64,000 nt of DNA, taken from assembly GCA_000434295.1 (NCBI GenBank), contig HF994935.1:638235-702234 (forward strand), read 5' to 3'. The notes beneath the pieces are model-generated. The model made no database searches, had not been told where the DNA came from, and saw only the letters and a program-made list of their open reading frames with translations. The stretch comes from Acetobacter sp. CAG:977 (GTDB lineage: Bacteria; Pseudomonadota; Alphaproteobacteria; CAAGCB01; CAG-977). Of the stretch, positions 2,370 through 64,000 are shown in pieces. Position numbers and translations under genes: made by a program. Numbering within the stretch: the first letter of the stretch is position 1; each line of letters opens with the position of its first letter.

Positions 2370-2382
2370 AGGGGTAAAGACT

Positions 2383-10088: not shown

Positions 10089-10143
10089 TTACGTCTCCTT
10101 TTTGCTTTATTTTAGGCAATTTGAATGAAAATACCATAAGAAA

Positions 10144-10980: not shown

Positions 10981-10987
10981 ATAAAAA

Positions 10988-11020
10988 AAGAAGCCCCCGA
11001 AAACGGGGGCTTCTTCATTT
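10988..11020. terminator. bidirectional rho-independent terminator
   Basis: gaagcccccg-aaaa-cgggggcttc hairpin flanked by A/T runs, between convergent genes. Confidence 0.65.
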
Positions 11021-11026
11021 GTTTAA

Positions 11027-28738: not shown

Positions 28739-29218
28739 ATGCATAAAACAAACGCTTTGCGAATGCTGGATCAGGCAAAAATATCTTATCGGGTCATTGA
28801 ATACCAAATCAACGACGAAAAAATTGATGCCGTGTCCGTCGCCGCAAAAATCGGGCGTTCTCCCGATACGGTTTTTAAAACGTTGGTAACCGTTTCTCCT
28901 GCCCGCGAACACTTCGTTTTCGTTATCCCTGGCGCCAAAGAACTGGATTTGAAAGCCGCCGCCGTCGCCGCAGGTCAAAAAAGGATCGAAATGTTGCCTT
29001 TAAAAGAATTGTTCCCGCTGACCGGCTATATTCACGGAGGTTGCTCGCCCGTCGGAATGAAAAAGCCGTTTCCGACTTTCATTGACGAAAGTGCCCTTAC
29101 CCTTGATTCTTTTTGCGTCAGCGGCGGAAAAATCGGCATCAATATTGAGCTGGCGCCAAAAGTTTTGGCAAACTTTATCAATGCTTCTTTTGCACCGCTG
29201 ACCAGAAACAATCAGTAA
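28739..29218 (+). CDS. ybaK: Cys-tRNA(Pro)/Cys-tRNA(Cys) deacylase YbaK
   Basis: 159 aa YbaK/ProX editing-domain fold. Confidence 0.75.
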   Translation: MHKTNALRMLDQAKISYRVIEYQINDEKIDAVSVAAKIGRSPDTVFKTLVTVSPAREHFVFVIPGAKELDLKAAAVAAGQKRIEMLPLKELFPLTGYIHGGCSPVGMKKPFPTFIDESALTLDSFCVSGGKIGINIELAPKVLANFINASFAPLTRNNQ

Positions 29219-31746
29219 GGATAAAAGCGAAACATCTCGGAAACCGCTATTCCCGCCGTCGTCGGATGTATAACGGACGGCAACAGCATCCCTTGCGGAG
29301 CCGCCGGTCCGAAAATAATATTCGTCGGCAACGTGTATAATCCGGTATCTTTCAGAAAATCTTTCAGATACGGCGTGTTATACGGCGCCGTCATAATAAC
29401 CAGCTTGCCTTGCCGTATTGCAACAGTCCCGCCGAAATATAACATCGCAAGCCTGTTATAATGACAGGCAAGACAGGCATCTTCGGAAACGTTGACATAA
29501 ACGGCTTTACCTTCCTGAACGAATTTATGCAGGTCTTTTTCGTTAAACGGGTATGCGGCAAAACCCGAAAAATTTAAGGAATTCGGTAAAAACGGCACGA
29601 AAAGAATCATCAAAACGAGAAAAACGGCGAAAAGCTTTTTCTTCGTTGCCTGAGTTTTGCTGACATTTTTTAAAATGAAGTACGATGTGAGCGCGAAAAC
29701 AAAAACACCCAAAAAGATCCAACGTCCGCTTTCCGAACCGATAATCAGCCATAGCAAAAAAGCGTGCAAATAAGCTTGGAAAAACAAAGCGAATTTTAAA
29801 AAGCGGATTTTCTTTACGGGCAATTCCGCCGCAGGTTTGTAATAAATCAACGCCGCGGCAAACGGAAAAACAATGCCGAACAAGAAACAAATTCCGTACT
29901 CGACGGGAAACGGCTTGAGCAAAGCATACAAATCAAAGTACGTTGACAGCATCGGGGAAAACAACATCATCATTCCGACAATCAACGCCAACGACATACC
30001 CGCCTTTTGCCGACAGGACACCATCCCTGCCGCTTTGAACAGAGGATTGATTTTTCCCGTATATTTTTCGACGCACTTATCATCAAACAGCTTCATCATC
30101 CACACGGGCGCAGTCAGGAATAAAGCGCAAAGCAAAACGTTGAAAAACGGCGAATTCAGCTGTTGTCCCCAAACGAACGGCACGTTCGGGAAAAAGAAAT
30201 AAATGACAAACGCGGCTGAACAAACGACGCTTAGGAACAAAGCCAGCCCGTACCAAGCCCCTTGAGCAAAATCCAAAGTCGCTTGAGGATTTTTTCCGCG
30301 AACAAAAAGCATTTGATACAAAAACAGGCTCATCAGCAAATAAAGCGGCGTTAAGACAATAAACTTTATCCCTGACAAAAAAGACAGGAACATTTTAAAA
30401 ACGGACACGCTCCGTTCGGACAGGAAAACGTCTTTTAACGAAAGACTGACGGAAAATTCCGAAGCGCGGTTTAAATTGAAAACCGTCAAAACCAAATTTG
30501 CTTTTCCGATCTTCTTTAAATGTTGTGGATTAAGGACTTTTGAACGGAAAACGGCATCCCCGTCCACACCGACAAAGAACGGCGTTTCAAAGCGAAGACC
30601 GTTCGTATTTGCGACGTGCAAAACGGGCGTATCCATATTAACGGCAGGAATTTCAAATGATGCCAACAAATAGATATTTCCGTCTTTATCTTCTTTGAAA
30701 CCTGCTTTTTTAAAGTTCAGTCCGGACAATCCTCCGGCGGGAACCGTCATGGCGACTTCTCTCAAATCGGGGCAAACAGGCGTTTCCAAAAAGGGATCCG
30801 AAAAAAAAGAATACGTCAACGGTTCGGTCGTTTCATCTTTGCATTGTCCGTCCGCATCGCAAATTTTAAATGTCGCCGTCAGATCAAATTTTGCCGCACT
30901 GGCGGGAGTTTCAAATTCGACTTCAAACGGAAACAGAATTTTTCCGGAATAGCCGTAAGCTCTGTCGTTCCCGAGTTCGAAAACGGATGTCAACGGATAT
31001 TGCAGAGGCAATACGGATATTCCTTTTGATGTGGTAACCTGCGTTTTTACGGGAATAAAGGGCTCACCTTCCCGTTGGCGCAAAATTCTGTATCCCGGCG
31101 TCAACAAAGCGATTAAAGCCATGTGGACTTTTTTCTTGTTTTTTAAATTCGCGCAAGCCGCCAAACGAAATTGTCCGTACGGAGCCGTATAAATCTCAGA
31201 ATAGAAACGTTCGTCTTTGAATGACTGCAAAAAATCATCCAAAGATTTATCTCCGAAGGCAAAATAGCGAATATTTTTCCATGTGCTTTTATCTTCGGAA
31301 TTAATTAAATATTCTGTTTTCCCGGGGTATTTTTCCAATATGGCTTGGTTAATCTCATCAATGGTACGATGGTATCCCGCTTCCAAAGATTTAAGCTTTC
31401 CCTTTAAATCCGAAAAAACGGAAATCAATCCTCCTTCGTCGTCCAAACGCGTCATTTCCTGCAAAATTTGAGCATCCGTGACGTTTTTTTGTTTGTTTTT
31501 GACGTAATATTCGTACAAGAAGCTCAATTTATCCGAAAAATACATCGTTTTATATTTTTCGATTTCTTCTTGGGTCAGGGGAATGACCGGCACATAAGGC
31601 GTTATGGGCTCTACGGTCTCCGAGGAGAAATCATTTTCTTCAACATTTGCGGTTTCGGCGGCAACGGAAACGGAAAGCAAAGCCAAGCCTGAAAAAAACA
31701 AAAAAAATGCAACGTTTAAAAATTTTTTCCGTTTCATTTTTAACAT
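29212..31746 (-). CDS. dsbD: DsbD-like thiol:disulfide interchange protein with extended N-terminal periplasmic region
   Basis: 844 aa; signal peptide; N-terminal domain with C-x5-C (CDADGQC) like DsbD-alpha; ~8-10 TM central region; C-terminal thioredoxin-like region with CxxC (GKAVYVNVSEDACLACH). Confidence 0.5.
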   Translation of the reverse strand: MLKMKRKKFLNVAFFLFFSGLALLSVSVAAETANVEENDFSSETVEPITPYVPVIPLTQEEIEKYKTMYFSDKLSFLYEYYVKNKQKNVTDAQILQEMTRLDDEGGLISVFSDLKGKLKSLEAGYHRTIDEINQAILEKYPGKTEYLINSEDKSTWKNIRYFAFGDKSLDDFLQSFKDERFYSEIYTAPYGQFRLAACANLKNKKKVHMALIALLTPGYRILRQREGEPFIPVKTQVTTSKGISVLPLQYPLTSVFELGNDRAYGYSGKILFPFEVEFETPASAAKFDLTATFKICDADGQCKDETTEPLTYSFFSDPFLETPVCPDLREVAMTVPAGGLSGLNFKKAGFKEDKDGNIYLLASFEIPAVNMDTPVLHVANTNGLRFETPFFVGVDGDAVFRSKVLNPQHLKKIGKANLVLTVFNLNRASEFSVSLSLKDVFLSERSVSVFKMFLSFLSGIKFIVLTPLYLLMSLFLYQMLFVRGKNPQATLDFAQGAWYGLALFLSVVCSAAFVIYFFFPNVPFVWGQQLNSPFFNVLLCALFLTAPVWMMKLFDDKCVEKYTGKINPLFKAAGMVSCRQKAGMSLALIVGMMMLFSPMLSTYFDLYALLKPFPVEYGICFLFGIVFPFAAALIYYKPAAELPVKKIRFLKFALFFQAYLHAFLLWLIIGSESGRWIFLGVFVFALTSYFILKNVSKTQATKKKLFAVFLVLMILFVPFLPNSLNFSGFAAYPFNEKDLHKFVQEGKAVYVNVSEDACLACHYNRLAMLYFGGTVAIRQGKLVIMTAPYNTPYLKDFLKDTGLYTLPTNIIFGPAAPQGMLLPSVIHPTTAGIAVSEMFRFYPY

Positions 31747-35241: not shown

Positions 35242-35778
35242 ATGCCAGTCATCTGCCGTACCGCCCTGCCCTCGGACATCGATGCCGTGATGCGCATTGA
35301 AAAAGAAAGCTTTTTACCCGGATTGCAAGAAGATAAAGACCTGTACTTAAAAAGGATATCCGCCTTTCCGGAAGGTTTTCTGTTGGCAGAAGACACGCAA
35401 ACAAAAGAAATCGGCGGTTATATTTGTTCCGAACTGTGGCGGGAAGACCGACCCGTTTGTGCCGAAACATTGGCTTTGGGGCACGATCCGAAAGAAGCCC
35501 ACTGCTATGACGGCACGCTGTTTTATATTACGTCTTTCGGAACTTTGACCTCGTGGAGAGGCAAGAAAGTCGGCTCTTTGCTGCTTGACACGCTTGAACA
35601 GAAAATCGCAAAAGAATACCCGCAGGCGACGCAAAGCGTCCTGATCGTTTCCGAAAAATGGCTTGCGGCACGTCGACTGTACGAAAAGCGCGGATTTAAA
35701 GAACGCGGGCGCATCATCGATTTTTTCACCCCCGACGATCTGCCTGCGGAAGACGCCGTTTTAATGATGAAACCTTAA
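35242..35778 (+). CDS. GNAT family N-acetyltransferase
   Basis: 178 aa; GNAT motif A region (WRGKKVGSLLL). Confidence 0.7.
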   Translation: MPVICRTALPSDIDAVMRIEKESFLPGLQEDKDLYLKRISAFPEGFLLAEDTQTKEIGGYICSELWREDRPVCAETLALGHDPKEAHCYDGTLFYITSFGTLTSWRGKKVGSLLLDTLEQKIAKEYPQATQSVLIVSEKWLAARRLYEKRGFKERGRIIDFFTPDDLPAEDAVLMMKP

Positions 35779-37175
35779 GGATACAATTCGGGAAAAACGT
35801 CTTTTTTCGGGGCGGGCTTTTTCTTTAAAGGCTTTTTGTTTTCAAAAGCCTTCCAAACTTCCGTTCCTATCGTTTCTTCAGACCGCTCAAACAGGATTTG
35901 CGAAAACTTTGTACGACCGTATAAACGGAAATTCAGTTCTTCCAAAACCCGAAGAAAATCTTCGTCTTCGCCGTTAATCACCCTTTTAACGTCCGACAAA
36001 TTCAGCACGGTCTGTTCGGAAATGCTGTCTGCCCAACGAATCAAAGCCTTTTCTATATCCTGCGGGTTTTGGGCGCGGCACGCTTCTTTAAGGTCGGCAA
36101 CCAAGGCACGCTTTTTTCTAAAGCTTCGCGAAAGCTTTGCTATTCCGAATATTGAAAAAACTGCCGAAAGGGTAAAAACGACAACGCAGAGCATCGTATG
36201 CGGCAAAGGAAAGACGGAAAAGATGTTTTTTAAACGCTTCTCAAAATCAAAAAAGGCATTATTGTTTTTTTTCGGTTCGGCTTCCGCCGTCCTTGTTTTT
36301 TGCGCCGCAGCGGCGGGGGTTATCTTAATTACGGCGGACGGCAAGAGTGCCGTTTCAATTTTTCCCGTCTGCGTATTGTACCAATCCGCTCTGATTTCCG
36401 GCAAAACAAGTTCCCCTTCGCTTTGAGGAATATAGACTTCGGTTTTTCTGATGCCTGCCAACAAATTTCTGCCCGAAGTCAAAAGGTTGCGTTCCAAGCG
36501 CCCTTCGTACGTTCTGGCATTTTCAGGCGCGGCGGACGAAATATCGGGCAGAAATCCCGGCAAAGTCCCCGCCGCCGTCAAAACGACGGAACGTTTTACG
36601 GGCATACCGACTTTTGCGACAAGGGAACGGGGCAGAATGCCCGATAAAAACTTGACATCGGTGGCGGGAAACAGCGGAGGCTTATGATCGGGAAGTTTGC
36701 GCACCGTAACGGAAAACGGCTCCGAACAAACTTTAAGCTCTTTGATTTTCTTGGAAAAAACGACGCGGTTATATGCCGACGTTTCTATTTTTGAAAACTC
36801 CCGCCCGAAATTGACGTTCCCCTGAATGATTTCTTCGGGCACTTTTGCCGACATACATAAAGACGGAAAACTTTGCGCGCCGTCGGTTTTTATGACAGCC
36901 CTTAAACGGACTTGAGTTACCTGATACGGCTTGCCGTTTTTGTTCATGACGCGTTCAAGGGTGTTTTTATCGGGGAAAACGTCAATGTTTTTCCAATCGA
37001 CCGGCATAAATCTGATTTCTGCCAATCCCAAGGAATCCCAAAGCCTTAGCCTGATTTCGAATTCTTCGCCGACCAAAACGTCTTTTTTGACGGGAAAGAT
37101 TTCGGCAAAGACCTCTTGGGCAAAAGCGCTTTTGCAAAACACGCAAAGCGAAACAAACAGAAAAAACCTTACCAT
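35775..37175 (-). CDS. batD: BatD-like protein (Bat/MoxR operon terminal gene)
   Basis: 466 aa; N-terminal signal peptide, large periplasmic region, C-terminal TM + basic tail; position after vWA/TPR genes. Confidence 0.5.
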   Translation of the reverse strand: MVRFFLFVSLCVFCKSAFAQEVFAEIFPVKKDVLVGEEFEIRLRLWDSLGLAEIRFMPVDWKNIDVFPDKNTLERVMNKNGKPYQVTQVRLRAVIKTDGAQSFPSLCMSAKVPEEIIQGNVNFGREFSKIETSAYNRVVFSKKIKELKVCSEPFSVTVRKLPDHKPPLFPATDVKFLSGILPRSLVAKVGMPVKRSVVLTAAGTLPGFLPDISSAAPENARTYEGRLERNLLTSGRNLLAGIRKTEVYIPQSEGELVLPEIRADWYNTQTGKIETALLPSAVIKITPAAAAQKTRTAEAEPKKNNNAFFDFEKRLKNIFSVFPLPHTMLCVVVFTLSAVFSIFGIAKLSRSFRKKRALVADLKEACRAQNPQDIEKALIRWADSISEQTVLNLSDVKRVINGEDEDFLRVLEELNFRLYGRTKFSQILFERSEETIGTEVWKAFENKKPLKKKPAPKKDVFPELYP

Positions 37176-38914
37176 TCCGCCCCCTGCAAGCTTTCGGGGG
37201 GATAACGCCCGCTGAGATGTTGGAATAAAATTTTCTGTTTTAACAACAAAGACGGGTCATCGGGGATTTTCGGTGCACCGCCGCCTTGCCCCTGCCCTTC
37301 GGACGGAGTGTTTGAAGGTTTGTTTTCAAAATTTCCTCCTTGTCCGTTATCGGAAGCCCCTGAGGCTCCGCTCGATGCTTCTCCTTTATTTTCTTGAGGA
37401 CTGTTTTGGTTGTCATTTTGTTTATTATCAGTATGTTGTTTGTTGTTTTTATTATTTTGGTTTAAGTTGTTTTCCTGATTTTCAGAATCCCCTTCGCCGT
37501 TCCCGCCGCCCGCAGAAGGCGCATCGGAACCGCCCGTACCATTATCGGAATCGCCTTCGTTATTTCCCGAAGAATCTCCGTCGCCTTTTGAATCATCGTT
37601 CTTGCCTTGTCCCCCGTCAGGAGGCGGTTCGCGGTTTCTTAACCGTTCGGCAATCTCTAAATTGACTTGCGCATCTTCGGAATTCGGATTTTCAAAAACG
37701 GCGGCTTTTAACATCTCTACCGCGGCATCATAGTTTTCCATCCGTATCAGACGCGTCCCCGTATTATAATACGTTTTAAAGTCTTCCGCATCGCGGGCAA
37801 TCCGTAACGCTTTAGAAACATCGCCTGATTTCAAGGCTTTTTCGGCACGGGCTGGAGCATTCAAAAATAAATCCGAAGCATTTGCGGGAACCGAAAAAAA
37901 TCCGAATATTAACAGCACGCTCAAAGCGCCTCTGCCCGCCAAAAAAGGAAACACCAACAAAGCGGGAAATAAAAACATCCACCCTATATCCGTCGTGCGA
38001 GGATCGTTTTTAACATTGATTTCCGATGCGTCGGCATCCTGAAACAAACGGGCATATGACCGCATTAAAAAAGCCGTATCAGACCCGTCCGCCGACACAG
38101 AAGCATAAGCTCCGTTCCCTTTCAAAGCGAGCTTTTTTAAAAACTCTTCTTTTAACCTGTGGTGTACGGGATTTCCAAGTCTGTCCGTTATCGGCGTATC
38201 GTCTTTTTGCATTAACGGCGCCCCCGCCGTCGTCCCTATGCCCAAAACGAACAGACGACCGCCGCTTTTAGCAAAAGATTCCGCCGTTTTCAAAGCATCG
38301 TCCTGTTGAGCGAGGACCTCTTCTCCCCCGTCGGTCAGCAAAAAAATATCCCCGCCTTTTGCTCCCGTTGATTTTAACATTCTTACGGCTTCCGCCAAAG
38401 CACGGTCTATGCGCGATCCTTGAGCCGGAACCAAATCGAAATTCAACAACGGCAATATATTTTCAATAACGCTTTTATCCGTTGTCGTCGGCAGCAAAGA
38501 ATACGGTTCGTTTGCAAAAATTCCGAAACCGACGGGCATGCCTTTTAAACCGTTTAAGATGTCATACGACTTGAACTGCAACGCGCTGAAACGGTTCGGA
38601 AATACGTCTTTTGCCCGCATCGAAAGCGACAAATCTGCCATAATCATGACAGGCGTTTTCGGAGCGTAAAGCGTCCCGTTTGTTCGTTGAACGCCGACCC
38701 CGACCATTGCCAAAACCGCACAAATCGAAGCAAAAAAAGATAAAATCGGCAAAATCCTTTTTTGCCCGCCACTCCCCCGCGACAAAAAAGGCAACAAATG
38801 CGAATCAACTGCCCTTCCCCATGCTTCGGACGTTCCGAACGCCCGAAAACAAAACAACAATGCCGGTATCAAAAACCAAAAAGCCCACGGGCGTAAAAAG
38901 ACAATTTCGTTCAT
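37169..38914 (-). CDS. vWA + TPR fusion protein (BatB/BatC-like) with G/N/D/S/Q-rich low-complexity C-terminal half
   Basis: ATG at 38914 (ATGA overlap with batA stop); TM helices, vWA MIDAS (ADLSLSMRAKD), TPR block, then long low-complexity region (NQENNLNQNNKNNKQ...GDGDSSGNNEGDSDNG). Confidence 0.6.
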   Translation of the reverse strand: MNEIVFLRPWAFWFLIPALLFCFRAFGTSEAWGRAVDSHLLPFLSRGSGGQKRILPILSFFASICAVLAMVGVGVQRTNGTLYAPKTPVMIMADLSLSMRAKDVFPNRFSALQFKSYDILNGLKGMPVGFGIFANEPYSLLPTTTDKSVIENILPLLNFDLVPAQGSRIDRALAEAVRMLKSTGAKGGDIFLLTDGGEEVLAQQDDALKTAESFAKSGGRLFVLGIGTTAGAPLMQKDDTPITDRLGNPVHHRLKEEFLKKLALKGNGAYASVSADGSDTAFLMRSYARLFQDADASEINVKNDPRTTDIGWMFLFPALLVFPFLAGRGALSVLLIFGFFSVPANASDLFLNAPARAEKALKSGDVSKALRIARDAEDFKTYYNTGTRLIRMENYDAAVEMLKAAVFENPNSEDAQVNLEIAERLRNREPPPDGGQGKNDDSKGDGDSSGNNEGDSDNGTGGSDAPSAGGGNGEGDSENQENNLNQNNKNNKQHTDNKQNDNQNSPQENKGEASSGASGASDNGQGGNFENKPSNTPSEGQGQGGGAPKIPDDPSLLLKQKILFQHLSGRYPPESLQGAEW

Positions 38915-39894
38915 TTGCCCGTATTCCTTTTTATTTTTGACCAAAGCCCGAAGCTTAAGCCTTTTAGGACGTTCACGCTCAACAAAACCAGACAAACGAA
39001 CAAAGGATACGGATACAGTTCTTTTTGAGGCATCAGATAAACGTCGGTTTGAGACAACGGTTCCGCATCTGAAATTTTTTGATAAGCTTCTTCCAACCCC
39101 TTCGGGTTGTCCACGGAATAGAAATGTCCGCCCGTTTCCTTGGCTATTTTTCCCAACAGCACGATATCTATGCTTTCCGCAGGATTGGCAGACGGTTTCC
39201 CGACACCGATTGTATAAACTCTGACATTTTCGGAAACGGCTTTTTTCAAAGCATCGGGAGGCATCAGGCTTCCCGCGTTATTAACGCCGTCCGTCAATAA
39301 AACGACCACTTTTTGCGCAGTTTCGGATTTATTTAAATAATCCGCCGCCATCCCCAAAGCATCCCCGATTGCCGTCATGCCGCCCAAAAGCCCGACCTGA
39401 ACGGAAGAAAGCATTTCTCTTAAAGTCAGGTAGTCAACGGTCAACGGAACATACATTGACGCCTGCCCCGCAAACAAAATAATGCCGATCCGGTCTCCGC
39501 TTCGGGTGCGGACAAACGTATCTGCGGCAGCTTTGACGGCACTTAAGCGGTCAAGAGCCTCACCGTTTTCGGAAATAAAATCTTTTTGTTGCATTGATCC
39601 TGAAATATCCAATATCAGGATTAAATCCCGAACAGGCGCGACATAGCTTTGAATCCCCGCGGGCGTTTGCGGGCGAGCCGCCGCAAGCAGCAAAAAAATC
39701 CAAGCCGCCTGCATCATAAAAGCCCGCCGAAAACGAAACGAACGGGGCATTTTTGAAGATATTGCCTTGACTTCGTAAAAAAACGGCACCTTAACGGCTT
39801 TGGAAAGCTCCCCTTCCTTTCCTGTCGAAAACCGCCGTACCAAATACGGCAACGGCAATAAAAACAGCAAAAAAGGGAAAGCGAAATGAATCAT
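38911..39894 (-). CDS. batA: vWA domain protein BatA-like
   Basis: two N-terminal TM + vWA domain with MIDAS (LILDISGSM). Confidence 0.65.
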   Translation of the reverse strand: MIHFAFPFLLFLLPLPYLVRRFSTGKEGELSKAVKVPFFYEVKAISSKMPRSFRFRRAFMMQAAWIFLLLAAARPQTPAGIQSYVAPVRDLILILDISGSMQQKDFISENGEALDRLSAVKAAADTFVRTRSGDRIGIILFAGQASMYVPLTVDYLTLREMLSSVQVGLLGGMTAIGDALGMAADYLNKSETAQKVVVLLTDGVNNAGSLMPPDALKKAVSENVRVYTIGVGKPSANPAESIDIVLLGKIAKETGGHFYSVDNPKGLEEAYQKISDAEPLSQTDVYLMPQKELYPYPLFVCLVLLSVNVLKGLSFGLWSKIKRNTGK

Positions 39895-55103: not shown

Positions 55104-56036
55104 CTAACCGACGTGGTCGTACGGACTGACGGGAGCTTTGCTGTTTTCCATCGTCTTGCGAACGTCCAAATACATCAACAACGGCATTGCGACATAAACC
55201 GAAGAATACGTTCCGACGATAATGCCGAACAGCATCGCAATGGCAAAACCTTCCAAAGCTTCACCGCCGATCAACAGCATAACAATCAACGCCAAAATCG
55301 TCGAAATACCCGTCATAATCGTTCTGGGCAACATATCGTTTGCCGTTTTGTTAATCATTTCGGGAATGGGCATCTTGCGATATTTATGCAGATTTTCGCG
55401 CATACGGTCATAAGAAACGATCGTATCGTTTGTCGAATACCCTGCCAACATCATCAAGCCTGCGACAATCGTCATATTAAAATCCAGCCCGCATACCGAA
55501 AACAGACCGAGCGTAATTAAAATATCATGGACGATTGAAATCATAACGCCCAATGCGAATTCCCATTCGAAACGCATCCAAATGTAAATCGAAATAACCA
55601 AAGCGCCTAAAATAACGGCTATGATACTGTTGCGTATCAATTCGCTGCCGACGCGGGGACCGACCATTTCCGTGCGACGAACGGAAAATTCATTGCCCAA
55701 TTCATCACGAATGACTTTGACGATTTTCATTTGTTCCTGTTCCGTCGTCCCCTGCCCCAAAGCCGTAATCAAAACTTCGGTGCCGTCTTCTCCGACAGGC
55801 TGCAAGTCAACATTCAATCCCGCCAGTTTTTCGCGGATAATTTTCATATCCACGGACTGTTCGGATTGGACTTCCATCAAAATGCCGCCTTTAAAGTCAA
55901 TCCCGTAATTCAAGCCCTTTGTTGCCAAAGACACGATCGAAATCAATACCAAAAGACCGGAAAAGAAGAACGCATATTTGCGCAAACCGATAAAATCGAT
56001 ATTCGTCGATTTTGTAAACAGAGAAATCAGCCTCAT
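55104..56036 (-). CDS. secF: protein translocase subunit SecF
   Basis: 310 aa, 6 TM, SecD/SecF family C-terminal region. Confidence 0.9.
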   Translation of the reverse strand: MRLISLFTKSTNIDFIGLRKYAFFFSGLLVLISIVSLATKGLNYGIDFKGGILMEVQSEQSVDMKIIREKLAGLNVDLQPVGEDGTEVLITALGQGTTEQEQMKIVKVIRDELGNEFSVRRTEMVGPRVGSELIRNSIIAVILGALVISIYIWMRFEWEFALGVMISIVHDILITLGLFSVCGLDFNMTIVAGLMMLAGYSTNDTIVSYDRMRENLHKYRKMPIPEMINKTANDMLPRTIMTGISTILALIVMLLIGGEALEGFAIAMLFGIIVGTYSSVYVAMPLLMYLDVRKTMENSKAPVSPYDHVG

Positions 56037-56047
56037 AAACGTTCTCC

Positions 56048-57607
56048 TTAAACATTCAAAGATTTAGGCTTGGCTATTTTAACCCATGCCAAAATCAAAA
56101 CACGGGTAACATAAACCGCCGTAAAGACCGACGTCAAAACGCCCAAACTGGTCGTTACGCCGAAACCGCGAACGGGTCCCGTGCCGAACCATATCAAAAT
56201 CAAGCTGGTGAACAAACTGGTCAAATTTGAATCGAAAATCGCCGAAAACGCATTGCTGAAGCCGGCTTCTATCGTATTCAGGACGGAACGACCCAAAGCC
56301 TGTTCTTCGCGCATACGTTCGTAAATCAAAACGTTCGCATCAACAGACATCCCCATCGTCAAAGCGATACCCGCAATACCCGGCAACGTCAAAGTGCATT
56401 CCAAAATACTCATCAAGCCTATCAGCATGACCATATTCAGAACCAACGCGATATCGGCAAAAATTCCGAACAAACCGTATGTTGCCAACATAAACAGCAA
56501 CACCAAAGCCATACCGATGCCGCATGCCAGCTTTCCGGCGTTAATCGAATCCGTTCCCAATCCGGGGCCGACAACACGTTCTTCGACGACATCCAAAGGA
56601 GCCGGCAATGCGCCTGAACGAAGCATCATCGCAAGTTCGCTGGCCGATTGTGTCGTAAAGCTGCCAGATATAATGCCGCTGCCGCCCGTAATTGCCGTTT
56701 TGACTTCGGGAGCCGTAATAACTTTGCCGTCCAGAACAACGGCTAAACGGCGACCGACATTTTCTCTGGTCGCATTGCCGAAACGTTTGCCGCCAAACGC
56801 ATTAAAGCGGAAACTGACAACGGCTTCGCCTTCCTGAAAATCGGCTCTGGCATCGGTCAAGTGTTCGCCGCCGACAATGGCTTTGCGTTCAATGACATAA
56901 TAAGCCTGAGACGCGGCTTCATCACCCGGAACGACCTTGGATTCCGGAGAAATCTTACCGCGGCGCGCATCCGCTATCGACGTCTTTTCATCAACGAAAT
57001 GAAACGACATCTTCGCCGTCTTACCCAACAGTTTCTTGACTTCGTTCGGATCTTCAACCCCCGGAAGCTGAACCTGAATACGGTCAGAGCCCTGGCGCAT
57101 AATCGAAGGTTCACGCGTTCCCAACTGGTCAATACGGCGGCGAACGATTTCAATCGACTGGTCTACCGCCGTCGTCTTCATACGAATTAACGCCGGATCC
57201 GTAAAAGATACCGTCAGTTCGTCTTCTTTTTCCGAAACGTCCAAATTGCCTTTATCCGTTTTGCGGATTAAATCTTTTGCCTTCAGTATGTCGTTGTCAT
57301 TGACGATACGGACTTTTAATTTGTCGCCTTCCTGCGTCAAACCCGTATAGCGAATGCCTTTTTCACGCAACGTATTACGAACGGCATCCTGTACCGCACC
57401 CATCTGATCTTTGACAACCTGATCCAGATTGACCTGCAACAATAACTGAGAACCGCCTTGAAGGTCTAACCCCAATGTCAGAGGTTTCCACCATTCGGGC
57501 AATTTTTCCTGTTGAGCCTGCGGCAAAAAATTCGGAACGCAAAAGAATACTCCAAGCGCCGAAATTATACCGATCAGGACAATTTTCCATTTCGGATAGT
57601 TGAACAT
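56048..57607 (-). CDS. secD: protein translocase subunit SecD
   Basis: 519 aa, large periplasmic P1 domain, conserved TM core. Confidence 0.9.
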   Translation of the reverse strand: MFNYPKWKIVLIGIISALGVFFCVPNFLPQAQQEKLPEWWKPLTLGLDLQGGSQLLLQVNLDQVVKDQMGAVQDAVRNTLREKGIRYTGLTQEGDKLKVRIVNDNDILKAKDLIRKTDKGNLDVSEKEDELTVSFTDPALIRMKTTAVDQSIEIVRRRIDQLGTREPSIMRQGSDRIQVQLPGVEDPNEVKKLLGKTAKMSFHFVDEKTSIADARRGKISPESKVVPGDEAASQAYYVIERKAIVGGEHLTDARADFQEGEAVVSFRFNAFGGKRFGNATRENVGRRLAVVLDGKVITAPEVKTAITGGSGIISGSFTTQSASELAMMLRSGALPAPLDVVEERVVGPGLGTDSINAGKLACGIGMALVLLFMLATYGLFGIFADIALVLNMVMLIGLMSILECTLTLPGIAGIALTMGMSVDANVLIYERMREEQALGRSVLNTIEAGFSNAFSAIFDSNLTSLFTSLILIWFGTGPVRGFGVTTSLGVLTSVFTAVYVTRVLILAWVKIAKPKSLNV

Positions 57608-57618: not shown

Positions 57619-58044
57619 TTATTTCTTCGTCAAAAGCTCTTTCAAGCCTTCGCTGCCTTTTTTATCCGTCGTAAATTCTTCTTCATTTTCATTAGCGGCG
57701 TCTTTTAATGAAGACGGCACATTATCCGCCATCCGCTTACCCGCTATGCGATCACGGACAACCGTAACTCGGACACCGTCCGCAATTTCCACAAGCAAAT
57801 CTTCTTCGTGACTGCGAATGACTTTGCCGACGATCCCGCCTGTCGTAACAATTATATCGCCTTTAGAAACACCGGCCTGCATGGCTTGATGTTCGCGAAG
57901 CCGTTTCTGTTGCGGACGAATCAGAAAAAAGTAAAAAACTACAAAAATTATAAAAAACTGGAACAATATCCTCGCCGGATCTCCTGCGGGGACTTGCTCT
58001 GCCGCCGCGGCAGCTTCCTGAGCAATTGCGGGATTGAAAATCAT
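57619..58044 (-). CDS. yajC: preprotein translocase subunit YajC
   Basis: FLIRPQQKRLREHQAMQAGVSKGDIIVTTGGIVGKV signature. Confidence 0.85.
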   Translation of the reverse strand: MIFNPAIAQEAAAAAEQVPAGDPARILFQFFIIFVVFYFFLIRPQQKRLREHQAMQAGVSKGDIIVTTGGIVGKVIRSHEEDLLVEIADGVRVTVVRDRIAGKRMADNVPSSLKDAANENEEEFTTDKKGSEGLKELLTKK

Positions 58045-58214: not shown

Positions 58215-58250
58215 CCTTGAAAAAAGAAACCCCGCTCCAAAAGCGGGGAA
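58215..58250 (-). terminator. rho-independent terminator ending the paralog array
   Basis: minus-strand hairpin ccccgct-ttgg-agcgggg followed by TTTCTTTTTTC. Confidence 0.6.
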
Positions 58251-58254: not shown

Positions 58255-59145
58255 TTACCTTGACGACAAACGCCCCAGCCGGGCGGCCATGTTTTGAACC
58301 GTCATCCGTTGCATTTGCGGATAGCTCCTGTCCAACGGCGGCGTAACTTTGCCGTCTGATTCTTTGACATACATTGTATCCAATGAAGTCCTCTTGACCT
58401 TGCGCGATGACGGCATCTTGTCCGTCTCTATCTTACGCGCCGCATCATAAACTTCGCGATTCATCGTATTGGCTTCTTTAGAAGCAAAAAAATCCTTATC
58501 ATTGCGCATATAAGGACACAAATTCATAACCAAATCTCTGTCCGAAACCGAACGCAAAGAACGGCTGGGACTGTAATGTTTTTTCATAAAGCACGCAACA
58601 TCATGATCATAGCTGTCAACGTACTTCTCATCCGAATACCATGCCTTAAATGCAGAGCTTAAAGCCTTTTGCGTATCTTTACTGGATTTTATTTCCGCCT
58701 CATACGCCTTGGCTATAAGCGGATGCTTCCCTTTAAATTCGGAAAATATCGCGGGATCGCTTATCCGCATTTCAAAAGCAGCTGCACATTGAACCGCCAT
58801 CGCATCGGCTTCCATCGCGCGATTCACTTTAATCGCCGATTCAATCGTATTCGTTGATGTATAATATACGCTTTGATCCGAATGACGCGCTTCATGAACC
58901 AATGTCGTCATTAAAATTTCGTCAGACATTTCGGGATTTAAAAAAATGCTCCGCTTGGCGTCGTCATACGTCCCTATCGCATCCATGCCGGACATCATGG
59001 ATATCTTTATTCCGTTATTCACGGCTTGTTCCAATATCCGTTTGGCAATCGGGCTGGTTTCCGAAGCACGATCATACAATTCCTGTACGCGCCGGTCTTG
59101 TTGCCGGTGTATGTCCTTTCTGTTGAAAAAATCAAAAACACCCAT
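58255..59145 (-). CDS. zincin-like HExxHxxQ protein, tandem-array paralog 1 (unrecognised family)
   Basis: start MGVFDFF at 59145; LVHEARHSDQ, NRAMEADAMAVQCAAAFEMR, AFKAWYSDEKYVDSYD; C-terminal basic tail ...ARLGRLSSR. Confidence 0.6.
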   Translation of the reverse strand: MGVFDFFNRKDIHRQQDRRVQELYDRASETSPIAKRILEQAVNNGIKISMMSGMDAIGTYDDAKRSIFLNPEMSDEILMTTLVHEARHSDQSVYYTSTNTIESAIKVNRAMEADAMAVQCAAAFEMRISDPAIFSEFKGKHPLIAKAYEAEIKSSKDTQKALSSAFKAWYSDEKYVDSYDHDVACFMKKHYSPSRSLRSVSDRDLVMNLCPYMRNDKDFFASKEANTMNREVYDAARKIETDKMPSSRKVKRTSLDTMYVKESDGKVTPPLDRSYPQMQRMTVQNMAARLGRLSSR

Positions 59146-59206
59146 AAAACGTCCTCCCGCCATTAGACAAATTTATCAGTTTTTTCTCTAATCTTCAAGA
59201 AAAGAC

Positions 59207-60109
59207 TTAACGTTCCAGCCGTTTCCTTAAATTAATTGCCGTCGAAACAATCAAACGTTCGGGCGTTTTAATCTCTCCGTTCGGCATGCGGACATACATC
59301 AGCGATAACGACGTTTCTTTCGGCTTGCGCAAAAAATGACGTATATGATGCTTTTCTATCTCTGCCCCTCGCTGCGCCGTCGAATAAGATACCGTTAAAG
59401 CTTTTGAAGACGAAAAAAATGATGCGGGCATATAGCTTTTCCCGAAAAACGAACAAACCTTTTCCGATACTTCCAAAGCAGGACGCTCATATTTATAAGC
59501 TCCGCGATATATTGACCCCAGCGACATAAAATTCAAAACTGCCGCATCGTATTGATTAACGTATGCTCCGTTCTCGTACCAGGCTTCAAACGCTTTACCC
59601 AATGCTTTGAACGGGTCTTTTGACGCAGAAAGCTCTTTTTCATAACAATCCGTAATCACGGGATGATGAGTTTTAAATTCTTTATACGCTCCGGGTTCCG
59701 ACGTCTTCATTTCAACAACGGCCGCACATTCAAAAGCCATCGCATCGGCTTCCATCGCGCGATTGACCGTAAGCGCCGATTTTACGGTGTCCGAATGCGA
59801 ATACCCGTGCGGCTGCAATGAATGTCGGGATTCGTGAACCATCGTTGCCAAAAGAATATCGTCAGACATATTTGAATTTAAAACAATCATCCTCGTTGCC
59901 GGAATATAGGCGCCCGATTTATTGCCCATGTCGGTATCCGTACAAAAAACAATGCCTTGCTTTATCGCCGCATCAACAATACTCTTGCCCAATGTTCCGG
60001 ATTTGGACAGCTTTTCCCTTAACTGCTTTATGCGGGAATCCGATATTTCGGATGTTTCCTGTTGAGGGCCGTTCTTTATTAAATCAAAAAGATCTTTTAA
60101 TGTTCCCAT
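59207..60109 (-). CDS. zincin-like HExxHxxQ protein, tandem-array paralog 2
   Basis: MGTLKDLF start; MVHESRHSLQ, NRAMEADAMAFECAAVVEM, AFEAWYENGAYVNQYD; ends ...NLRKRLER; start ATG overlaps stop of paralog 3 by 1 nt (TAATG). Confidence 0.6.
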   Translation of the reverse strand: MGTLKDLFDLIKNGPQQETSEISDSRIKQLREKLSKSGTLGKSIVDAAIKQGIVFCTDTDMGNKSGAYIPATRMIVLNSNMSDDILLATMVHESRHSLQPHGYSHSDTVKSALTVNRAMEADAMAFECAAVVEMKTSEPGAYKEFKTHHPVITDCYEKELSASKDPFKALGKAFEAWYENGAYVNQYDAAVLNFMSLGSIYRGAYKYERPALEVSEKVCSFFGKSYMPASFFSSSKALTVSYSTAQRGAEIEKHHIRHFLRKPKETSLSLMYVRMPNGEIKTPERLIVSTAINLRKRLER

Positions 60110-61014
60110 TAAATGCAGATCCTCCCTTTCGTTCGCAAAGCCGCTTTTATAATTTCAGTCTCTTCGGATGAACGGCGTTTCGGTTTATGCACGGTTCCGT
60201 CTTCGTTCCTGAGGAAAAAATAATCCGTCGAACAGTTTTCTTTGCCTCTCAGAATCCCGAACAAGCCTTTCTTTTCTAACAGTTCCGCACGCTTAGCTAT
60301 ATCTGCGTGAACGGTCGTCGCTTTTTGACTGCCCAAAAAAGCAGCCCCTATATACCGTTTTCCGTTAAACCTGCATAAAGCGTCCGCTATATCCTTTTCC
60401 GGAACATTTTGTGTAAAAGCGCTTCTTTGAGATTTACCGATACGCATAAAATCGACTGCTCTTTCGTCATATGAAGAAATGTAACGGTCATTTTCATACC
60501 AGCTTTTAAAAGCTCCTTCTATACCGGCATCCATACTGTGCGTTTTTTCGTAGTTTTTCTGGAAACCCCACATAATATAATTATATTCGGTTGAAAAATC
60601 CAAAAAGGCATCCGGTTCCGAACGACGCATTTCAAATGCCGCCGCACACTGAACAGCCATGGCATCGGCTTCCTGAGCCCGATTAATCTGAATTGCCGAC
60701 TTCAGGTCTTGAGAAAAATCCTTGCGTAATTTTTGCGTTGCGTGTCGGCTTTCATGAACAATCGTCGTCAAAAGCGTTTCATCCGACGCCCGTGATGAAA
60801 GACAGACCTTTTTAAAAAGAGGGTTATACGCGCCAACGGCATTTTTCATCCCGTCGTCAAAAACAAAAGACACTCCGTTGTCTTGGGCTTTTTTTAAAAC
60901 GTCTGCTGCGATCGGAGACGCTTTTGTCGCCCGCTCTATCAAAGAATTTATCCGTTCGTCTTCGGCGTTTTTTTCCTGTTTGCTTTTACCGAAAATCGTT
61001 TTTAAAAGCCCCAT
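60109..61014 (-). CDS. zincin-like HExxHxxQ protein, tandem-array paralog 3
   Basis: MGLLKTIFG start with AGGAGAGG RBS; IVHESRHATQ, NRAQEADAMAVQCAAAFEMR, AFKSWYENDRYISSYD. Confidence 0.6.
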   Translation of the reverse strand: MGLLKTIFGKSKQEKNAEDERINSLIERATKASPIAADVLKKAQDNGVSFVFDDGMKNAVGAYNPLFKKVCLSSRASDETLLTTIVHESRHATQKLRKDFSQDLKSAIQINRAQEADAMAVQCAAAFEMRRSEPDAFLDFSTEYNYIMWGFQKNYEKTHSMDAGIEGAFKSWYENDRYISSYDERAVDFMRIGKSQRSAFTQNVPEKDIADALCRFNGKRYIGAAFLGSQKATTVHADIAKRAELLEKKGLFGILRGKENCSTDYFFLRNEDGTVHKPKRRSSEETEIIKAALRTKGRICI

Positions 61015-61025
61015 TTCGTCCTCTC

Positions 61026-61874
61026 CTACCTGCCGTCGTCGCGGGGAGCCAAAAACGCCGCCGCTTTGGCCGCAAAAGAATTCTTTTTTATTTCACGAAC
61101 ACCGTTGCCGCACAATTTCGGTATCTTAAAATCATAAAAAGATTTGTCCTTAATCGGCAACCCTGCCAAGCGCAATCTGAACGCCGTACCGCGTTTTACA
61201 GTCAATGCCCTGTCCGTTTTTAAAAAAGAACTGTCGACATATACCCCCTCTTGCGAACCGGAGCAGACCGATTTCATTATACGGATCTCGGAAACTTCCT
61301 TTAAATCGGGGCGGGCTCTTCCCATAACCCCCAAAACGGCGTCGGAATCATAGCGGTCGACATAGTCGCGATCGTCAAACCAAGCTTTAAATGCTTCGCC
61401 AAGTGCGGCTTTACGACCTTTTTCTGCTTCTTTCTCATAAGCGGAAGCGATCTTTTGACTTGAGCGTTTAAAGCTTTCCCACACTTTGGGATATGCCTTT
61501 CGCATTTCAAATGCCGCAGCACATTGAAAAGCTTTTGCATCGGCTTCTTGAGTTCTGTTAATCAACAGCCGGCTTTTTAAATTTCCGCCTTCAATATGAC
61601 CTTGCAACGAATGGCGCGCTTCGTGAACCAGCGTACTGCACAAATCTTCGTCAGAATAACGCGCATTCAAAGAAACCGTATTTAACGATGGAATATATAC
61701 GCCCAAAGGCAATATATCGTCCGCAAAAACAAATTGTGTCCGTTTTTCGTTTAATGACTTTTCCAATATGCTTTTGCCTGTCGGGCTGTTCTGGCACACC
61801 CTTTGTATTAAAGCGTGCATACGTTCCGAAGGATGGAGAGGCAGTTTTTTTTGACCGAATGCTTTTGATATCAT
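61026..61874 (-). CDS. zincin-like HExxHxxQ protein, tandem-array paralog 4
   Basis: probable start MISKAFGQ at 61874; LVHEARHSLQ, NRTQEADAKAFQCAAAFEMR, AFKAWFDDRDYVDRYD; ends ...PRDDGR. Confidence 0.55.
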   Translation of the reverse strand: MISKAFGQKKLPLHPSERMHALIQRVCQNSPTGKSILEKSLNEKRTQFVFADDILPLGVYIPSLNTVSLNARYSDEDLCSTLVHEARHSLQGHIEGGNLKSRLLINRTQEADAKAFQCAAAFEMRKAYPKVWESFKRSSQKIASAYEKEAEKGRKAALGEAFKAWFDDRDYVDRYDSDAVLGVMGRARPDLKEVSEIRIMKSVCSGSQEGVYVDSSFLKTDRALTVKRGTAFRLRLAGLPIKDKSFYDFKIPKLCGNGVREIKKNSFAAKAAAFLAPRDDGR

Positions 61875-61887
61875 AAAAAGCCCCCCG

Positions 61888-62778
61888 TCAACGACCGTTA
61901 TTGCGAATTTTCGCCACAAAATAATTTTTGCTTTGAAACGTCAAATCCTTGCCGTCGGAAGGACGGGGCACCAAATCATAGACCGAAGCATCAAAATTGC
62001 CGTAGAGCATTTCTTTTTTGCGAGCCAACAGCTTGGATTGAGCCAATACGCTTTCGCTGATTCCCAAAGCCCGTTCCGAAGACAAAAAATCAGGATCGTT
62101 TAAATATCCCTTGCCGTGATGCGTACAGAACAAACCGGATATTTCCTGAGGCTGCATATTTCCCGTTAAAAACTTTTTACCTGCCCGTTTTGACTGAAAA
62201 GACAAATATTTTATAACATCACAGTCATATTCGGACACATAGCCGATGTCGTCATGCCAAGCCTTAAAAGCTTCTCCGATGGCGAAATTTCTGTCCCCGC
62301 TTTGTTTGATTTCCCGTGCATATGCAACGGCAATCTGAGGATGTTCCTTTTTAAACAAATGCCACGCTTTCGGATAATTATACTGCATTTCAAACGCCGA
62401 CGAACATTCAAAAGCCATTGCATCGGCTTCCTTGCTTCTGTTGATTTGCAAATTCGTCCTGATATTTTTATCGGCGGACAACAGACAGTTCGGCTGAACG
62501 GCATGGCGGCTTTCGTGAACCAATGTCGTTACCAGTTCATCGTTTGAAAGCATGACGTTCAAGCAAACGGAATTGGTTCGGGCGTCATAAAAACCGACAT
62601 AACCGTCTATACCGCTCATAAAATCATAACGGCATCCCCTGCTTTGGGCGTCATCAATGACTTCTGCCGCCGTCGGGCTGAATTTCGATGCGCGTTCAAG
62701 CAAACGGTGCATCCGCCCCGACTTGTCATTTGGCAAGCGGTTTTCAAAATATTCCGGTATGTCTAATCCGCCGTTCAT
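61888..62778 (-). CDS. zincin-like HExxHxxQ protein, tandem-array paralog 5
   Basis: probable start MNGGLDIPEY at 62778; LVHESRHAVQ, NRSKEADAMAFECSSAFEMQ, AFKAWHDDIGYVSEYD; ends ...KIRNNGR. Confidence 0.55.
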   Translation of the reverse strand: MNGGLDIPEYFENRLPNDKSGRMHRLLERASKFSPTAAEVIDDAQSRGCRYDFMSGIDGYVGFYDARTNSVCLNVMLSNDELVTTLVHESRHAVQPNCLLSADKNIRTNLQINRSKEADAMAFECSSAFEMQYNYPKAWHLFKKEHPQIAVAYAREIKQSGDRNFAIGEAFKAWHDDIGYVSEYDCDVIKYLSFQSKRAGKKFLTGNMQPQEISGLFCTHHGKGYLNDPDFLSSERALGISESVLAQSKLLARKKEMLYGNFDASVYDLVPRPSDGKDLTFQSKNYFVAKIRNNGR

Positions 62779-63989
62779 CTGGCTTTGTCTCCTTTGAACC
62801 ATGCGGCTAAAACAGCGCCGACCTTCTTTCCTGACGATATTATACTTCTTTTTTCGGGCCATGTACAGAAGGCTTCCGCACTTTTGTCCATTTTTTCGCC
62901 AAATGCGGAATTCGAACGGGAAAGCTTTTTCAATTTTGAAAGAATGTCCGAATCCATTCTCAATGCTTCATCACCGCTGACATACCCAGAAGCCGAAAAA
63001 GAAGCCTTACTGCCCGGAACGTAAAAATTACACTTCCCGATCCCGAAGCGCTGCAGACTTCCGTTTAAATTTTGCCTTTGTGCTCCGTATCCGACCCCCT
63101 GCAACACACATTCGTCGCTGCGGCGAACGGCTTTCCTGTCCCCGTAAAAAGCTTTAAACGCCGCCTCATAAGCCATACCCGCATCCGAAAAACGTTGTCT
63201 GGATCTGGCGTACGCAACAGCCTGAGACGGATTTTCTTCTTTAAACCATCTCCACAAATCGGGGTTCTTTCTGCGCAACTCATAACAAACCGCGCCCAAA
63301 ACGGCTCCCTTGTCGGCACAAAAAGCCCGATGCGCCGAAACGGCATCGCCGACACCCAAAAACCGCCCTGCCGCAAGATCACGCCCCAAAGTTCCGCTTT
63401 CTCTGATCTTGATAACAATATCTTTCAGTGCTTCGTTGTCCGAAGCGTCCGCAGAAATAAAAACAGAAAACGGTTTCTCCGTACTTTTTTGCTCTGCCCG
63501 TTTCGGAGACGCAAAAATTATCCGTCCCCCTTCAGATTCAAAATCCGCAATCAATGCCGCGGCCGTCGGACTGAACGACAGCGCTTCTTTCGCCGAAGAA
63601 AGCTTTTGACTAAAAACGCAAGGCTTTATTTTTCCCGTTTCAGAAATGACGGAAAACGAATACAAAGAATAATCGCGCCCGATTTTGGGATATAACAACG
63701 CCCCTTCGGCATTCTTTTTTTCATAAATGCCGTAGACATCCCGAGAAACCGACATTATGCGTTCCGTTTCCAAAAAATCAGAATGTTTCGACATATATCC
63801 GCCGTCGGATCCCCAACGGCAAATCGATTCCAATATTTCCGATGACGGCAAAAACCCTTTTTCTTCTTTTATATATGAAGAATGAATATATTTGGATTGC
63901 AGCAAATCATAGCGGTTAACGTATGACCGATCGTCAAACCACGCTTTGAACGCTTCCCGTATGCACGCCGCCCGATCCTGCGTTTCCAA
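62775..63989 (-). CDS. array paralog 6 (HExxH degenerate) fused in-frame to C-terminal half of a further upstream copy; 5' end beyond window
   Basis: N-terminal visible part = ...EAFKAWFDDRSYVNRYD + ~110 aa tail (C-half of copy 7); then FSPTAAALIADFESEGG... with IVIKIRESG replacing VHExRHS, retained ...DAVSAHRAFCADKGAVLGAVCYELR and AFKAWYGDRKAV blocks. Confidence 0.45.
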   Translation of the reverse strand: METQDRAACIREAFKAWFDDRSYVNRYDLLQSKYIHSSYIKEEKGFLPSSEILESICRWGSDGGYMSKHSDFLETERIMSVSRDVYGIYEKKNAEGALLYPKIGRDYSLYSFSVISETGKIKPCVFSQKLSSAKEALSFSPTAAALIADFESEGGRIIFASPKRAEQKSTEKPFSVFISADASDNEALKDIVIKIRESGTLGRDLAAGRFLGVGDAVSAHRAFCADKGAVLGAVCYELRRKNPDLWRWFKEENPSQAVAYARSRQRFSDAGMAYEAAFKAFYGDRKAVRRSDECVLQGVGYGAQRQNLNGSLQRFGIGKCNFYVPGSKASFSASGYVSGDEALRMDSDILSKLKKLSRSNSAFGEKMDKSAEAFCTWPEKRSIISSGKKVGAVLAAWFKGDKAR

Positions 63990-64000
63990 AGCCGCATCGG

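Follow-up and report, generated by a model that had tools for sequence, protein, structure and literature searches.

Introduction

What are the tandemly repeated genes that lie beside yajC-secD-secF in the gut bacterium Acetobacter sp. CAG:977, and where do their products work? The question is raised by a stretch of 64,000 nucleotides from this organism (the whole stretch is called the window here), in which an initial annotation had reported six consecutive minus-strand genes for HExxH zincin-like proteins and had proposed a family of secreted effectors or toxins. The source is an uncultured human-gut metagenomic species whose proteins are labelled "putative uncharacterized protein" or "unknown". 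CAG-977 and its relatives are common in human and animal guts and are uncultured, and the literature found on them consists of abundance-association studies only. A lineage-restricted, expanded and fast-evolving protease family is a lead to how these bacteria interact with their surroundings.

In the present study, the array genes are assigned with little doubt to the DUF6782 zincins. New here are a nine-gene syntenic array with one-to-one orthologues, its five-fold accelerated divergence, a retained inactive fused domain and a portable C-terminal tag. The reading that we favour, although we hold it to be about evenly balanced, is that the array encodes active, diversifying metallopeptidases whose tag directs them to a destination that is Sec-independent and most likely lies outside the cytoplasm.

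Structure of the array

The region 58255-63989 of the window contains six consecutive minus-strand open reading frames (ORFs; 58255-59163, 59207-60109, 60109-61014, 61026-61919, 61888-62862 and 62775-63989), with listed lengths of 297-324 amino acids (aa) for the five complete genes. In three of them the likely start lies inside the ORF (copy 1 at 59145, copy 4 at 61874 and copy 5 at 62778), in agreement with the public gene calls. The region thus holds five complete DUF6782 genes of 282-301 aa and most of a 555-aa two-domain gene that crosses the window edge. Copy 1 begins at the ATG at 59145, with a GGAGGA Shine-Dalgarno sequence 6 nucleotides (nt) upstream; it is called at 296 aa in public contigs, and the protein cluster to which it belongs is named 'putative uncharacterized protein [Acetobacter sp. 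CAG:977]' (CCZ23095.1). Because of the internal starts, the MG start that had been ascribed to all intact copies holds for three of the five, and copies 4 and 5 begin with MISKAF and MNGGLD.

The array had been expected to continue past the window edge, and it does: the sixth frame is open to the edge and the source contigs, 99.6% identical to the window, extend it to nine genes with ten domains (312, 320, 312, 555, 296, 282, 301, 300 and 296 aa in order). All genes inside it are DUF6782 in the source contig gene calls, and the window region is the downstream two-thirds of this array. Five of the six genes of about 300 aa that were first described therefore stand, and the sixth is part of the two-domain protein. 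The features of the array are listed below, followed by those of its neighbour.

58230..58248, minus strand: intrinsic terminator directly after array gene 9; stem CCCCGC...GCGGGG of 8 pairs (6 G-C), then TTTCTTTTTT
58255..59145, minus strand: array gene 9 (copy 1), 296 aa, MGVFDFF start, HEARHSDQ and RAMEAD, end ...ARLGRLSSR; DUF6782 at E 5.2e-43, 147.5 bits
59207..60109, minus strand: array gene 8 (copy 2), 300 aa, HESRHSLQ and RAMEAD, end ...LRKRLER; DUF6782 at E 6.5e-39
60109..61014, minus strand: array gene 7 (copy 3), 301 aa, HESRHATQ and RAQEAD, end ...RTKGRICI
61026..61874, minus strand: array gene 6 (copy 4), 282 aa from MISKAF (also the public call, 282 aa), HEARHSLQ and RTQEAD, end ...PRDDGR; DUF6782 at E 1.2e-38
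61888..62778, minus strand: array gene 5 (copy 5), 296 aa from MNGGLD, HESRHAVQ and RSKEAD, end ...IRNNGR; DUF6782 at E 6.4e-37
62775..63570 (upper boundary approximate), minus strand: array gene 4, C-terminal degenerate DUF6782 domain, placed by alignment, hmmsearch domain match and the full gene sequence
63571..64000 (lower boundary approximate), minus strand: array gene 4, C-terminal half of the intact N-terminal domain, ...EAFKAWFDDRSYVNRYD..., frame open to the window edge
57619..58044, 56048-57607 and 55104-56036, minus strand: yajC, secD and secF, with Pfam YajC, SecD and SecF matches; conserved downstream neighbour, separate transcription unit

The motifs HExxHxxQ and RxxEAD are intact in nine of the ten array domains. 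In the degenerate domain of gene 4, VIKIRES stands in place of VHExRHxxQ and AFCAD in place of xxEAD (Glu to Cys), and the protein ends in ...WFKGDKAR. The start codon and the HEARHASQ motif of this gene lie past the window edge; in the source contig (L067, gene 6574-8241, 555 aa) the motif is found at residue 83. Of the blocks that had been described as common to all six genes, HE[AS]RH[SA]xQ, RxxEADAxA and AF[KE][AS]W...Y..YD are indeed present in the five copies, but the degenerate domain is without them.

Adjacent genes of the array either overlap (by 1-4 nt) or leave gaps of 11-61 nt; the last base of gene 7 is the first base of gene 8, and gene 5 overlaps gene 4 by 4 nt. Because the stop and start codons overlap or sit close, the array looks like one operon. 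It is bordered on one side by a divergently transcribed amidohydrolase gene and on the other by yajC-secD-secF, which lies downstream on the same strand and is kept as a neighbour in at least 15 genomes. Since a strong intrinsic terminator closes the array about 190 nt before yajC, the array forms a transcription unit of its own, apart from the yajC operon. Given this terminator, we do not read the adjacency to the Sec genes, which had been taken as a hint to secretion, as a functional clue; it is a case of conserved synteny.

Family membership

The consecutive paralogues align along their full length, as first described, and all match one Pfam family, PF20573 (DUF6782, "putative metallopeptidase"; 241 model positions, gathering score 27 bits). 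The five complete copies reached 147.5, 134.0, 147.9, 133.2 and 127.5 bits and covered nearly the whole model, with E values of about 1e-37 to 1e-43, and the partial two-domain ORF reached 46.2 bits. The HExxH motif behind the family label is present in 5/5 complete window genes. Hence the family is not an unrecognised one, as had been thought, but a catalogued one, which lowers the claim to novelty; the gain for annotation is that "hypothetical proteins" become DUF6782 zincins. The Pfam model covers the first ~220-250 residues and omits the conserved post-domain region and the terminal tag, and the inactive fused domains and syntenic arrays are likewise absent from the Pfam entry. In the literature searched, we found no mention of DUF6782 or PF20573, nor of tandem arrays, fast evolution or a portable tail in this family.

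At E values up to 1, the only Pfam matches besides DUF6782 were weak ones to DUF3920, Aspzincin_M35 and MCM_C. The families that had been put forward as candidates (DUF4157, M48, Peptidase_M78 and M91) gave no match to the window copies at this level, and the HExxHxxQ spelling is the sole likeness to the DUF4157 zincin modules of polymorphic toxins and extracellular contractile injection system effectors. NCBIfam holds no model for DUF6782 and gave no match above any cut-off, and a PADLOC search for defence systems gave no match for the family. Below threshold, IrrE in the PDB was matched at E 0.36 and 0.65 over the strand and HExxH stretch. The phage profile phrog_87, 'metallo-protease', was matched at E 1e-5 to 3e-3, with copy 2 at E 9.9e-6.

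Fold and active site

Motif and terminus counts were made on 150 family representatives, and conservation, hydrophobicity and the deeper of the models on 93 diverse sequences. The conservation of HExxH and of the downstream Glu, which had been named as a point to check, proved high: HExxHxxQ occurs in 141/150 representatives (about 94%) and E[AS]D in 142/150. Among the 93 sequences, conservation reaches at least 90% at G61, H87, E88, H91, Q94, E116, D118, F170, W173, Y183 and at the C-terminal Arg, and A117, A119 and Y224 do not vary. Such conservation is in keeping with a gluzincin-type active site.

Two AlphaFold models were confident, with predicted local distance difference test (pLDDT) values of 89.4 and 90.5 (the latter for copy 5) and predicted template modelling (pTM) scores of 0.86 and 0.88. 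In both models, a three-stranded sheet leads into the HExxH helix and then into the next helix, which carries the conserved Glu of RxxEAD, 24 residues past the second His; the C-terminal half is helical. The arrangement is that of gluzincins, with an HExxH active-site helix after a mixed beta-sheet and a Glu ligand on the following helix, and it bears out the zincin-like fold that had been proposed. The folded core has ~260 residues, with flexible N- and C-terminal extensions. The structural matches (scores in brackets) were the HExxH domain of ChlH (7.2), Wss1 (7.0), the BoNT/A light chain (6.6), the minimal zincin 3e11 (6.6) and PprI/IrrE (6.5, with the top identity of 19%), and further PrpR, CapP, BepA and M1 aminopeptidases. 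Foldseek searches of the PDB and BFVD gave nothing at an E value of 0.001 or better, and their matches, to selecase, IrrE and SprT, were local ones to the core. The minimal gluzincins (selecase, projannalysin and proabylysin) and Wss1/SprT have ~110 aa in total, to which DUF6782 adds ~170 residues.

The motif is lost in one degenerate domain and kept in the rest, and we therefore argue that it is functional. The array proteins are probably active peptidases, and they would act as Zn-dependent gluzincin-type endopeptidases with diverged substrate specificities.

Evolution of the array

The five intact copies share 32-39% pairwise identity, within the 30-45% that had been estimated by eye, and 23-32% with the degenerate domain. 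Repeats at the DNA level are confined to motif-coding blocks of 60-77% identity at gene-length spacing, and there is no recent amplification or gene conversion. In a sister species (L072), the same nine genes recur in unchanged order, among them the fused gene with its single HExxH, and the bit scores between the source contig and L072 gave a strict one-to-one positional orthology. The array is therefore older than the species split, and every paralogue was kept. The old, diversifying expansion that had been suspected thus agrees with the identities, with the orthology and with the limited DNA repeats.

Between these two species, the array orthologues are 48-72% identical, with nonsynonymous divergence (dN) of 0.19-0.50. 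The flanking genes (the amidohydrolase gene, yajC, secD, secF, a DJ-1-like gene, thrC, an M16 peptidase gene and rpiB) are 79-97.5% identical with dN of 0.01-0.14. By dN, the array proteins diverge ~5x faster than these housekeeping genes; since synonymous divergence (dS) is saturated, relative dN was used and dN/dS is unreliable. Judged from the sequences, such a rate pattern marks a family whose function is retained while it is under diversifying pressure. In gene 4 of L072, the inactive fused domain, which has lost both HExxH and the Glu, is also kept behind the intact domain. Two-domain genes similar to array gene 4 were seen in L003, L012 and L029.

N-termini and C-terminal tag

The genes had been described as lacking signal peptides, and this was confirmed at the family level: a signal-peptide-like N-terminal hydrophobic stretch was found in 1/93 representatives and a 19-aa transmembrane-like window in 0/93. 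The suggested N-myristoylation finds little footing, as residue 2 is Gly in just 15 of the 150 representatives (Ser in 42, Thr in 16) and, among the window copies, only MGLLKT of copy 3 fits the pattern of Gly2 with a small residue 6. Amphipathic membrane-targeting helices, as are known from MinE and SecA, were considered for the N-terminus (MGLLKTIFGKSK, MGVFDFFNRK) and for the C-terminal helix and were rejected as unsupported; the hydrophobic moments were 0.33 and 0.26, against a median of 0.28 and a 90th percentile of 0.50 for internal 11-mers.

The basic, Arg-containing C-terminal tails noticed in the window copies are real, family-wide and portable. A C-terminal Arg is present in 123/150 representatives, and 57/150 end in GR. 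The last 12 residues carry on average 3.2 K+R against 0.33 D+E, acidic residues being almost absent; positions -12 to -7 are rich in A/L/V/I and positions -6 to -3 in K/R. The tag thus consists of a short hydrophobic stretch, K/R-rich positions and a terminal [G/S]-Arg. It is predicted to be disordered, residues 278-295 of copy 5 lying below pLDDT 50, and appears as an undocked flexible appendage. Self-inhibition by a C-terminus docked in the active site was considered, since the zymogens projannalysin and proabylysin have theirs docked in the cleft, and it is unsupported as judged by pLDDT: in the 93-sequence model the tail is below 50.

In order to find the tag elsewhere, a weight matrix was built from the last 12 residues of the family, with the 99.9th percentile of internal 12-mers as threshold. 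It picked 20 of 760 non-family neighbour proteins, where 0.76 were expected, and none of the controls (0/57 other window genes and 0/74 genes on two control plasmids). The tail-bearing proteins belong to about nine unrelated families, including a GlgX-like isoamylase, a PepF-like M3 oligopeptidase, Elm1-like, AAA_33 kinase-like and Abhydrolase_2 esterase proteins and an unknown family; examples of their tails are ...SVLAQMKNKHFSR, ...SLIHKSKSAGR and ...AAMLNKQKAGR. The Elm1-like tailed protein of the source genome adjoins another DUF6782 gene (L108). Tailed non-family genes are located at the following places (locus and coordinates).

L041, 7700-9919
L061, 7736-9937
L008, 1054-3261
L009, 1566-3773
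L004, 1006-3204
L001, 13033-14886
L108, 3985-5256
L006, 10652-11917
L058, 14917-15456
L062, 14029-14940
L013, 948-1646
L013, 14280-14999

A shared C-terminal domain was considered as the basis of the likeness and rejected, as hidden Markov models of the last ~100 and ~40 alignment columns matched only DUF6782 fragments among the neighbours; the short tail alone is common to the family and the unrelated enzymes. Clustering of the tailed genes around DUF6782 genes was likewise rejected (median distance of 3.1 kb in both groups; Fisher's exact p = 0.36). Probably a few percent of the proteome carries the tag. As a sequence handle, the tag lends itself to listing co-targeted proteins and to a search for the machinery by which it is read. 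Our literature search returned nothing on RF32 secretion systems or C-terminal arginine signals.

Distribution and genomic context

A HMMER scan of 1.84 billion cluster representatives yielded 950 members at E<=0.001 and 417 at E<=1e-10, and a genome scan yielded 66 family loci in 31 assemblies; the scan patterns were built from the window subfamily, so that more distant members elsewhere could have escaped. All but one of the assemblies are labelled Alphaproteobacteria, Rhodospirillaceae/Rhodospirillales or Proteobacteria, and the named sources are human gut, rumen or faeces. In the metagenome matches, every contig with a stated source came from human gut, the remainder having accession-style names only, and no viral contig carried the family. 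The assembly with the deviating label (CAVCSV, titled Limosilactobacillus gorillae; L008 and L051) carries the same alphaproteobacterial loci (secY-adk, DUF6782 and GlgX-like) as the other metagenome-assembled genomes and is probably a mislabelled, mis-binned or contaminated bin.

Tandem arrays and two-domain fusions are recurrent; in the fragments examined, a locus has up to 8 domains and a genome no fewer than 17-22, and some loci showed a single family match only. At the syntenic site of our array, the copy number is 9 in the source and the sister species and 4 in other species.

A second DUF6782 subfamily of ~430 aa is encoded by a single gene, with an MGILDEAREEL... start and an ...RG or ...SR end. 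Within the ribosomal-protein gene cluster, where rpoA follows it, the gene lies 4 nt past secY-adk in L044, L045, L048 and L050 (about 9870-11212); in L035, L038, L039, L040, L042 and L051 the distance to adk ranges from a few hundred bases to several kb. This subfamily is the better conserved one, its products being 74-95% identical where SecY is 85-99% identical. A third form, which is longer, is encoded behind the tailed isoamylase and a short way before rpsL-rpsG: L041 4347-13264 and L061 3249-13151 share the conserved gene order rmlA-rmlC-rmlD-rmlB, tailed GlgX-like isoamylase, ~500-aa DUF6782 gene, GNAT gene and rpsL-rpsG. In L004 and L009, a 631-aa OEP (TolC-like) gene comes after the isoamylase instead. 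This repeated siting by core, highly expressed operons may have to do with expression level or insertion tolerance.

Destination of the array proteins

If the favoured reading is right, the C-terminal tag would be a portable targeting signal, most probably for Sec-independent export or for delivery to a defined site. With export, a diversified set of proteases would act on substrates beyond the housekeeping proteome of the cell itself, such as host, dietary or competitor proteins. That the array proteins are exported, with which the evidence is compatible, is a tentative proposal, to which we give slightly less than even weight. In the fullest form of this reading, proteins with the tag would be carried by a Sec-independent pathway of uncultured gut Alphaproteobacteria, for export or sorting, that has not been described before, with the rapidly diversifying DUF6782 proteins as main cargo and the tailed isoamylase, M3 peptidase, esterase and others as the rest of a secreted hydrolase arsenal against host, dietary or competitor molecules; this form we consider rather unlikely.

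Several points weigh against the favoured reading. Within 1.43 Mb (the window and 114 loci from about 31 genomes), no homologue was found of A. fabrum VirB4/6/8/9/10/11/D4 by phmmer or of E. coli HlyD and GspD/E/F, and the matches to HlyB are generic MsbA-like ABC exporters, which adjoin family genes in two genomes and are below every curated cut-off. The tailed GlgX-like and PepF-like families are normally cytosolic, so that the tail could serve in localisation or as a degron rather than in export. The tailed genes are no nearer to DUF6782 genes than other neighbours are, and the placement of the ~430-aa subfamily 4 nt after secY-adk suggests a cellular role. By weak sequence and structure signals, the nearest characterised relatives (ImmA/IrrE, PrpR and CapP) are intracellular regulatory proteases. 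Saturation of dS leaves relative dN as the sole reliable measure of rate, and both the enzymatic activity and the localisation of family members are predictions.

The best placed alternative starts from these relatives. In it, the array would encode intracellular, site-specific regulatory or conflict proteases like ImmA/IrrE/CapP, each paralogue cleaving its own cytosolic target, such as a protein from a phage or mobile element, and the tail would be a localisation element or an abundance-limiting degron. The ImmA/IrrE group (MEROPS M78, COG2856, with PprI, CapP and the PrpR N-domain) shares the zincin core with DUF6782, that is, the strand, turn and HExxH helix with the Glu ~25-28 residues downstream on the next helix. 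It provides the sole sequence-level links (the IrrE and phrog_87 matches) and the highest-identity structural ones. The scarcity of signal peptides and the absence of secretion genes nearby speak for this alternative as well, and the fast evolution and the tandem paralogy would also suit a defence role. However, the family was matched neither by the Peptidase_M78 profile nor by PADLOC, and no viral contig carried it. ImmA/IrrE proteases usually act on a helix-turn-helix (HTH)/Xre-type repressor; no such partner gene is evident in the array, which is flanked by the amidohydrolase gene and yajC. Moreover, a degron or localisation role does not obviously account for the tail on an isoamylase, an M3 peptidase and an esterase. 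We regard an intracellular role of this kind as unlikely on the whole, though as the main rival.

The initial annotation had compared the tails with substrates of VirB/VirD4 type IV secretion systems (T4SS). On that account, the proteins would be effectors that enter eukaryotic host cells by means of the positive C-terminus, some copies being N-myristoylated in the host. The T4SS signal of Agrobacterium is a net-positive, arginine-rich C-terminal peptide (PMC8525350), and in both systems unstructured, uncleaved, net-positive peptides end otherwise unrelated proteins, the DUF6782 tails being likewise hydrophilic to amphipathic and disordered. The host lineage is alphaproteobacterial and gut-associated, and a Sel1-repeat protein of the window hints at host interaction. 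Nevertheless, the DUF6782 tag differs in its hydrophobic stretch, its K/R positions and its near-fixed terminal [G/S]-R, and the tails of Agrobacterium VirD2, VirD5, VirE2 and a VirA/G-regulated protein (encoded beside VirE2 and probably VirE3) scored -14.7 to 0.9 on the tail matrix against a family median of 8.4. Together with the lack of VirB/D4 homologues in the 1.43 Mb searched, the scarcity of Gly2 and the presence of the tail on GlgX-like and PepF-like enzymes, this makes the T4SS account improbable.

Very improbable is a non-protease role, in which HExxH binds iron as in the alpha-ketoglutarate-dependent HExxH peptide hydroxylases or belongs to non-catalytic binding modules: one copy only weakly matches TIGR04267 (mod_HExxH; best 11.8 bits, E 0.17, against a cut-off of 40 bits), and the Arg of HExRH is invariant in the 12 closest sequences (T or Q in other representatives), but the candidate third ligand is the Glu of RxxEAD, no third His is found among the positions conserved to at least 90%, and the loss of the motif from one degenerate domain alone speaks for its function.

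Other features

Among transporter genes near the family, a TolC-family gene in the source genome passes its own cut-off and lies 1.2 kb from another family member, and in two genomes the gene after the tailed isoamylase is of the OEP family; TolC does not serve protein export alone. Pairs of MsbA-like half-transporter genes were noted beside DUF6782 genes in L006 (6245-9771) and L022 (12324-15970), all of them below the curated NCBIfam cut-offs, the latter pair being directly downstream of the gene for a tail-bearing 370-aa coiled-coil protein.

Elsewhere in the window, the following genes were noted. Sel1 repeats are frequent in host-associated bacteria, and the GAF-PAS-GGDEF-EAL protein would belong to cyclic-di-GMP signalling.

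2326-4005, plus strand: 559-aa Sel1-repeat protein, E 6.8e-48
6492-8987, plus strand: 831-aa GAF-PAS-GGDEF-EAL protein
29212-31746, minus strand: 844-aa ORF, its one Pfam match being to DsbD_N, below threshold (E 4.7e-5; 23.8 bits, cut-off 25)
35775-39894, minus strand: run of VWA_2 and VWA/DUF58 genes with DUF7939

The last of these resembles a Bat/aerotolerance-type operon, and same-strand ORFs adjoin it up to about 42339.

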